NCBI RefSeq assembly: GCF_044324785.1
Contig: NZ_CP172127.1
Origin: Escherichia coli
GTDB lineage: Bacteria > Pseudomonadota > Gammaproteobacteria > Enterobacterales > Enterobacteriaceae
Reading direction: 5' to 3' (one strand)
DNA length: 64,000 nucleotides
Shown: positions 12,963 through 13,149 of the stretch, one piece after another
How the letters are laid out: each line of letters begins with the position of its first letter
How positions within the stretch are numbered: position 1 is the first letter of the stretch
The notes under the pieces: model-generated
Seen by the model: the letters and a program-made list of their open reading frames with translations, nothing else
Database searches by the model: none
Told to the model about the DNA's origin: nothing
Made by a program: the position numbers and the translations under genes

Positions 12963-13109
12963 AGGCTCCTTTTAGTTGCAAAGGTTGTGCTGAATGAAGA
13001 TAAAAAGAGGCAACTTATTGCTCTGAATATAGTGCGTGAGGAGATGAATAAATATCAAAAATCGCTCAATATGCCCGTGTGGGTGGATATATGTGGCGCG
13101 GGTTGCGAT

Positions 13110-13136
13110 AACAGGGCAAGTTTCGCCCTGTTTTTA
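13110..13136 (+). terminator. Terminator-like hairpin oriented on plus strand between rbn stop and elaD start
   Basis: cagggc-aagtttc-gccctg followed by TTTTT on plus strand; the minus-strand reading lacks a T-run. Confidence 0.35.
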
Positions 13137-13149
13137 GTAGTAAGCAGAG

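Follow-up and report, generated by a model that had tools for sequence, protein, structure and literature searches.

Results

The rbn-elaD spacer contains a terminator-shaped hairpin

We analyzed a 64-kb stretch of the genome of E. coli strain N3 (hereafter, the window), which runs in the reverse orientation to K-12 numbering. Over the 321 nt queried, its sequence is 100% identical to that strain. Both rbn and elaD are encoded on its minus strand, as the first-pass annotation of this DNA had stated, and they are separated by a 187-bp spacer (12963-13149) that is the subject of this study (Table 1). The spacer of K-12 MG1655 (NC_000913.3) is flanked by the end of rbn at 2382525 and the start of elaD at 2382713. 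The N3 and K-12 spacers align without gaps, so a K-12 coordinate x corresponds to window position 12962 - (x - 2382713). The two sequences differ at 8 of the 187 spacer positions, with the hairpin described below and its immediate flanks being identical. All of the transcript data considered here come from K-12, to which strain N3 was compared by sequence.

Table 1. Features in and around the rbn-elaD spacer, in window coordinates.
Feature	Position	Strand	Details
elaD (ElaD/SseL deubiquitinase)	11739-12962	minus	
Antisense-elaD RNA	12741-12911	plus	PMC7815308, supplementary file 2; ends at the equivalent of 2382764 (-)
Untranslated C-rich, G-poor, rut-like RNA downstream of the hairpin	12963-13103	minus	C/G 1.2-3.2 in 60-nt windows
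Candidate promoter	TTGCAA (12976-12981)-17-GATAAA (12999-13004)	plus	8/12 consensus matches
38-codon ORF	13044-13160	plus	not supported as a gene
K-12-equivalent rbn mRNA 3′ end (steady state)	13104-13107	minus	PMC10687069, via gap-free alignment
Hairpin arms	13110-13117 AACAGGGC and 13125-13132 GCCCTGTT	both	repeat search; 8 nt, 100% complementary
Hairpin loop	13118-13124		7 nt
T5 run (TTTTT)	13131-13135	plus	U-tract for plus-strand RNA
rbn (ribonuclease BN/Z) CDS	13150-14067	minus	

The arms of the hairpin include a 6-bp core, cagggc/gccctg (13112-13117 and 13125-13130). On the plus strand the element reads cagggc-aagtttc-gccctg-TTTTTA, a GC-rich stem-loop followed directly by a U-tract, which is the arrangement expected of an intrinsic terminator. 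On the rbn-sense strand, the T5 run instead reads as an A5 tract upstream of the hairpin. The predicted fold of the plus-strand RNA has an 8-bp stem and a 7-nt loop (-15.2 kcal/mol, z -3.0), and that of the minus-strand RNA has a 10-bp stem closed by a triloop (-14.6 kcal/mol, z -4.4). The hairpin and T-run that the first-pass annotation placed at about 13110-13136 are therefore present, with 8-bp arms and a T5 run, and the orientation it gave them also holds: judged by sequence alone, only the plus strand has the shape of a canonical terminator.

To ask how often such a shape occurs, we ran a strict motif scan for a mismatch-free stem of 6 bp or longer that includes four or more GC pairs, a loop of 3-8 nt, and at least five T's in the next six bases. 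Across both strands of the window (128 kb of strand), the scan returned two sites only, this hairpin and a site at 9730 after nuoN, compared with a chance expectation of 0.3 sites (mean of 30 dinucleotide shuffles). The hairpin-plus-T-run shape is thus more than chance. A standard terminator scan gave no call at the hairpin, probably because the full 8-bp extension of the stem consumes two of the T's. The other strict motif (9730-9754, plus strand; CCGCCG-ACATGTT-CGGCGG-TTTTTT) lies about 25 nt beyond nuoN, presumably as the terminator of the nuo operon. We also noted a short palindrome, GTTAAACGTTAAAC, at 13149-13162, which overlaps the rbn stop codon and the stop codon of the plus-strand ORF.

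A 41-mer containing the hairpin is found exactly in 4110 of 4489 E. coli genomes, and the T5 run is identical in all 12 alleles sampled. In an alignment of nine alleles, one of the 27 hairpin positions was variable, versus 13 of the 187 positions in the whole spacer. Variable positions are no scarcer in the hairpin than elsewhere in the spacer, so selective constraint is not detectable and conservation is uninformative about function. Two variants of the hairpin were found: a G>A change in the 3′ arm, which gives a C·A pair on the plus strand and a U·G pair on the minus strand, and a C>A change in the loop, the latter among further alleles. Two variants are too few to discriminate between the strands, and covariation is unusable because the spacer exists in E. 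coli only, at 96-100% identity.

The 3′ end of rbn mRNA maps to the hairpin in K-12

The TRS study (Nat Commun 2023, PMC10687069) reports a K-12 plus-strand 3′ terminus at 2382564-2382573 that is labelled "rbn, Primary", with the dominant end given as 2382568 in one table and 2382571 in another (Supplementary Data 2-4). The sequence folded for this terminus is exactly the hairpin described above, at -14.6 kcal/mol and with a longest U run of 2. We verified the coordinate offsets of the study against its row for the thrL attenuator. When transferred to the window, the mapped rbn-sense end lies 3-6 nt past the extended stem, giving rbn a 3′ UTR of about 45 nt. The rbn-sense RNA after the stem is UUAUCGCAA, which has no U-tract and no U run longer than 2; past the stem, this RNA reads UUAUCGCAACCCGCGCCACAUAUAUCCACCCACAC.

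The rbn-sense end is the only 3′ end mapped at the hairpin, and a published genome-wide map already lists it. The first-pass annotation had named rbn 3′ ends at the hairpin on the minus strand as the result that would tell against its plus-strand reading, and this is where the K-12 map puts them. On neither strand does the curated Term-seq list of Adams et al. 2021 (PMC7815308) include a 3′ end at 23825xx, so the position of the rbn 3′ end comes from the tables of one study (PMC10687069). We conclude that the feature is real, with the anatomy given above, and is an ordinary gene-end stem-loop.

On the rbn-sense strand, the RNA that follows the hairpin has the composition of a potential Rho-loading region. 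From the hairpin onward its C/G ratio is 1.8-2.4 in 60-nt windows, rising to as much as 3.2 nearer elaD; the same stretch must also contain the promoter and leader of elaD. A bicyclomycin-sensitive region is listed on this strand at 2382642 (+) (score 3.2, p 5e-5; PMC7815308, supplementary file 2), which corresponds to window position 13033 or so on the minus strand, about 70 nt beyond the hairpin. Coverage upstream and downstream of this point was 57 and 31 without bicyclomycin, and 46 and 81 with it (PMC7815308). These values are for 800-nt windows, and because the windows are that wide, read-through from rbn and transcripts from the elaD promoter are inseparable in them.

A class of 3′ ends with these properties was described by Dar & Sorek 2018 (PMC6061677), who found that Rho-dependent transcripts have precise steady-state ends directly after stable stem-loops without U-rich tracts, with rut sites immediately downstream and with PNPase or RNase II trimming the RNA back to the stem. 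The rbn locus fits this class of protective stem-loops in its sequence and in the position of its end. The rbn 3′ end lies directly after a stable stem-loop, there is no U-rich tract on the rbn-sense strand, the RNA that comes immediately next is C-rich and rut-like, and the same strand has a bicyclomycin-sensitive region further along, at 800-nt resolution. Unlike the stem-loops of that class, the rbn hairpin bears a canonical T5 run on its opposite strand, and whereas exonuclease trimming is described for the class, at rbn we infer it.

Our preferred reading, to which we assign a probability of roughly 70%, is that the hairpin serves as 3′-end stem-loop for the minus-strand rbn mRNA, with Rho-dependent termination downstream and trimming back to the stem. 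RNA polymerase exiting rbn would read through the hairpin, there being no U-tract on the rbn-sense strand. Rho would then load on the untranslated C-rich, G-poor RNA directly downstream, with termination expected to fall within the rbn-elaD spacer, and 3′-to-5′ exonucleases would trim the released RNA to the stem, leaving the stable ends 3-6 nt past it.

Plus-strand transcription toward the hairpin

No plus-strand gene is annotated upstream of the hairpin, and the only documented plus-strand transcription toward it is the RNA antisense to elaD. This RNA has a C-rich stretch (12741-12860, C/G 2.2-3.4) that precedes a bicyclomycin-sensitive site at 2382764 (-), or about 12911 in the window. At this site, reads antisense to elaD fall from 274 to 21 in the absence of bicyclomycin and from 503 to 139 in its presence (PMC7815308), and the RNA seems for the most part to stop about 200 nt short of the hairpin. 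Plus-strand RNA from the spacer itself is G-rich (C/G 0.35-0.55), making it a poor Rho substrate. Expression is low, and among the TRS rows listed, no plus-strand end was found at the T-run, that is, at 238253x or 238254x (PMC10687069).

Because the antisense-elaD RNA heads toward the hairpin, the strict terminator motif is rare and plus-strand spacer RNA suits Rho poorly, the T-run may act as a back-stop terminator for this RNA, a role of modest interest that we infer. The hairpin and its U5 tract would probably also stop antisense-elaD RNA that escapes Rho near 12911, before it enters rbn. The element is like a canonical intrinsic terminator in having, on the plus strand, a GC-rich stem of 6-8 bp, a 7-nt loop and then UUUUUA. 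It is unlike one in that there is no annotated plus-strand gene upstream and no mapped plus-strand 3′ end, and in that the strand with a mapped 3′ end, the rbn-sense strand, has no U-tract.

The best promoter-like match nearby on the plus strand, TAAACA-18-GATAAT (9/12; 12690-12719), lies inside elaD in the antisense direction. It could be the source of the antisense-elaD RNA in K-12, or a chance match.

A more elaborate role can be imagined for this strand, in which a discrete plus-strand RNA arises from the 5′ part of elaD or from the spacer, runs antisense over the start codon and ribosome-binding site of elaD, and terminates at the hairpin-U5, acting as a cis-antisense brake on elaD and as a shield for rbn. 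If so, the acquired deubiquitinase gene elaD would be braked in cis by an antisense RNA, and rbn would be shielded from antisense transcription. We consider this quite improbable.

Alternative explanations for the hairpin

The mapped 3′ ends, at 3-6 nt past a stem of -14.6 kcal/mol, have the geometry usual for intrinsic termination, and rbn transcription might therefore stop directly at the hairpin, on the poor U-tract UUAUCG, without Rho or trimming. We think such a weak intrinsic terminator unlikely: the longest U run is only 2, rut-like RNA and a bicyclomycin-sensitive site lie downstream on the same strand, and stem-loops without a U-tract are a hallmark of processed Rho-dependent ends (PMC6061677). 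The fallback offered by the first-pass annotation, a weak bidirectional terminator for rbn, came near to what the data show. Termination in both directions could also arise by collision, with rbn and antisense-elaD polymerases converging, pausing at the hairpin and dislodging each other, as proposed for convergent E. coli gene pairs (Ju et al. 2019, as related in bioRxiv 10.1101/2022.10.23.513370). Convergent RNAs are indeed present here, the hairpin is encoded on both strands, and the preprint describes collision terminators as unlike intrinsic terminators and as Rho-independent. Like the bidirectional terminators of Ju et al. 2019, as presented there, the locus has one hairpin element where opposing RNAs, rbn-sense and antisense-elaD, meet. 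Unlike them, its annotated flanking genes are co-directional, its U-tract is on one side, and bicyclomycin sensitivity is found nearby on both strands. Most of the antisense RNA, too, seems to end about 200 nt short of the hairpin, and the locus is absent from the lists of bidirectional terminators examined. A collision terminator is thus very unlikely.

Two further explanations involve promoters. Genomic SELEX identified an RpoD holoenzyme peak in the rbn>elaD spacer, which the authors assigned to elaD, with the hexamer pair TTAAAA-18-TGTTAT (PMC3946193). We located this pair in the K-12 sequence on the elaD-sense strand, overlapping the hairpin, such that the A-run would supply the -35 hexamer and the 3′ arm together with TTAT the -10 hexamer, with the hairpin being incidental to elaD promoter DNA. 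However, the hexamers were picked by pattern within a broad peak, the window has CTAAAA as the -35 element, and the mapped RNA 3′ end would be left unexplained. We doubt that the hairpin is incidental in this way and rate it as quite unlikely, although an elaD promoter at this position is compatible with, and not exclusive of, the rbn 3′-end explanation. A sigma-28 SELEX peak at 2379830 falls inside rbn, outside the spacer.

The SELEX result also means that RpoD holoenzyme binds somewhere in the spacer in vitro (PMC3946193), a point in favor of the reading preferred by the first-pass annotation, an independent plus-strand gene. In that reading, transcription from a sigma-70 promoter at 12976-13004 would yield a roughly 120-nt RNA, terminated at the hairpin-T5, that is either a small RNA or the mRNA for a 38-aa protein. 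The canonical and statistically rare terminator shape on the plus strand favors such a gene as well, as do the few non-RefSeq annotations that label the ORF a hypothetical protein. The peak, however, was assigned to elaD, on the other strand. The hexamers and 17-nt spacer of the proposed promoter are present as claimed, but only 8 of the 12 bases agree with the consensus, and the conserved T at position 6 is missing from the -10 hexamer. Position 13002 is polymorphic, so that 5 of the 9 alleles sampled, K-12 among them, have GATGAA as this hexamer. The pair falls below the 9/12 threshold of our promoter scan, and even at that threshold the scan operates at chance level, with 5 sites versus 4.9 in shuffled sequence (2 kb), or about 2.5 per kb.

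The 38-codon ORF is likewise present, and its Shine-Dalgarno spacing is poor, as had been noted, with GAGGAG abutting the ATG at zero spacing. Beyond that the ORF fares badly as a gene. Codon 13 is changed from TGG to TGA in HB6-type alleles, and at least 362 of the 4485 genomes, O157:H7 among them, contain the exact 41-mer bearing this stop. The ORF matched none of the Pfam and NCBIfam models, and it is called hypothetical only in scattered non-RefSeq annotations, with start positions that vary. RefSeq annotates nothing under the hairpin in any of the 40 genomes sampled. A U run of five is short for an Hfq-binding sRNA. An Rfam scan of 11500-14700 at E <= 10 returned chance matches only, none better than E = 2.8, and the supplements of the SMRT-Cappable-seq, O157 Sakai small-gene and TERMITe studies have no entry for the spacer locus. 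Our search of the literature on elaD found no report on an RNA or terminator in the rbn-elaD spacer. The element is confined to E. coli, and the end that maps to the hairpin is rbn-sense, with no plus-strand terminus among the table rows listed. The proposed 120-nt transcript thus finds no support, a small RNA or small protein gene in the spacer is not supported, and we regard an independent plus-strand gene as extremely unlikely.

The hairpin belongs to a strain-variable elaD segment

The segment, counted as present at 80% or more of the query, occurs in 4459 of 5426 complete E. coli genomes (~83%). In the remaining E. coli genomes similarity ends at the rbn stop codon, and in these elaD-less strains yfbK is convergent on rbn over an unrelated 120-bp spacer. 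The elaD-less arrangement and its spacer are also found, at 86-97% identity, in E. whittamii, Escherichia sp. E1V33, MOD1-EC7003 and a fourth lineage, and neither elaD nor the elaD-linked spacer was found in any of 80 rbn loci from outside E. coli. The cassette starts some 24 nt ahead of the yfbK stop codon and reaches the last codons of rbn. GC content is 35% in elaD, 43% in the spacer and 50% in rbn. From these comparisons, the hairpin and the whole spacer arrived with the AT-rich elaD cassette, which replaced the old convergent rbn/yfbK spacer and which is confined to E. coli. The present 3′-end structure of rbn is thus acquired, not ancestral.

We considered two other origins for the hairpin. 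It could have been a stranded ancestral yfbK terminator, but the ancestral rbn/yfbK spacer, as found in elaD-negative E. coli and four other Escherichia lineages, has no similarity to it. Membership in a repeat family was rejected as well, the hairpin being single-copy, with a median of one place per genome. A search with the ElaD protein for the context of a donor found only near-identical E. coli proteins.

Rho and H-NS silence AT-rich, horizontally acquired genes. The elaD region bears a likeness to the targets of such silencing in its 35% GC content, its occurrence as a strain-variable cassette, and the bicyclomycin-sensitive sites on both strands around the elaD 5′ end.

Several additional observations concern the structure of the cassette. 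Its boundary lies inside the coding ends of both neighbors (window 13150-13165; 3004-3020 in locus L002), which suggests replacement by recombination and not a clean insertion. The C-terminus of Rbn is ...FTVFNV where elaD is present and ...FAVFSI where it is absent, and the last ~8 codons of YfbK also differ. In K-12, yfbK lies between elaD and yfbL; in N3 it is almost wholly missing (window 11230-11738). The 3′ remnant of yfbK in N3 ends ...catcagtcagtgatgactttttag at about 11678 and is preceded by a very AT-rich stretch at about 11300-11510. A 15-bp hairpin, TTCGACCAGTCAGCA-TATT-TGCTGATTGGTCGAA, is found in the same cassette at 11689-11722, just past the elaD stop codon and before the yfbK remnant. 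It is 93% complementary in N3 and perfect in K-12, and is likely a two-way terminator for the convergent elaD/yfbK pair.

RefSeq annotates elaD of N3 as a frameshifted pseudogene, yet the ORF in the window is uninterrupted over 407 codons. The frameshift probably lies close to the 3′ end, altering the C-terminus, because the match of the protein to its own translated locus covers residues 1-398 only. Frameshifted or truncated copies of elaD also occur in strains A21005 and M171-1.

Discussion

When two genes lie on the same strand, a terminator-shaped motif between them that points the "wrong" way is not necessarily the sign of a hidden gene. Its stem can form the processed 3′ end of the upstream mRNA while the T-run belongs to the opposite strand, and this is how we read the hairpin between rbn and elaD. 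The finding itself matters little. Its one mildly useful point is the evolutionary origin of the rbn 3′ end: in about 83% of E. coli genomes, rbn, a core gene, borrows its 3′-end stem-loop from acquired DNA.
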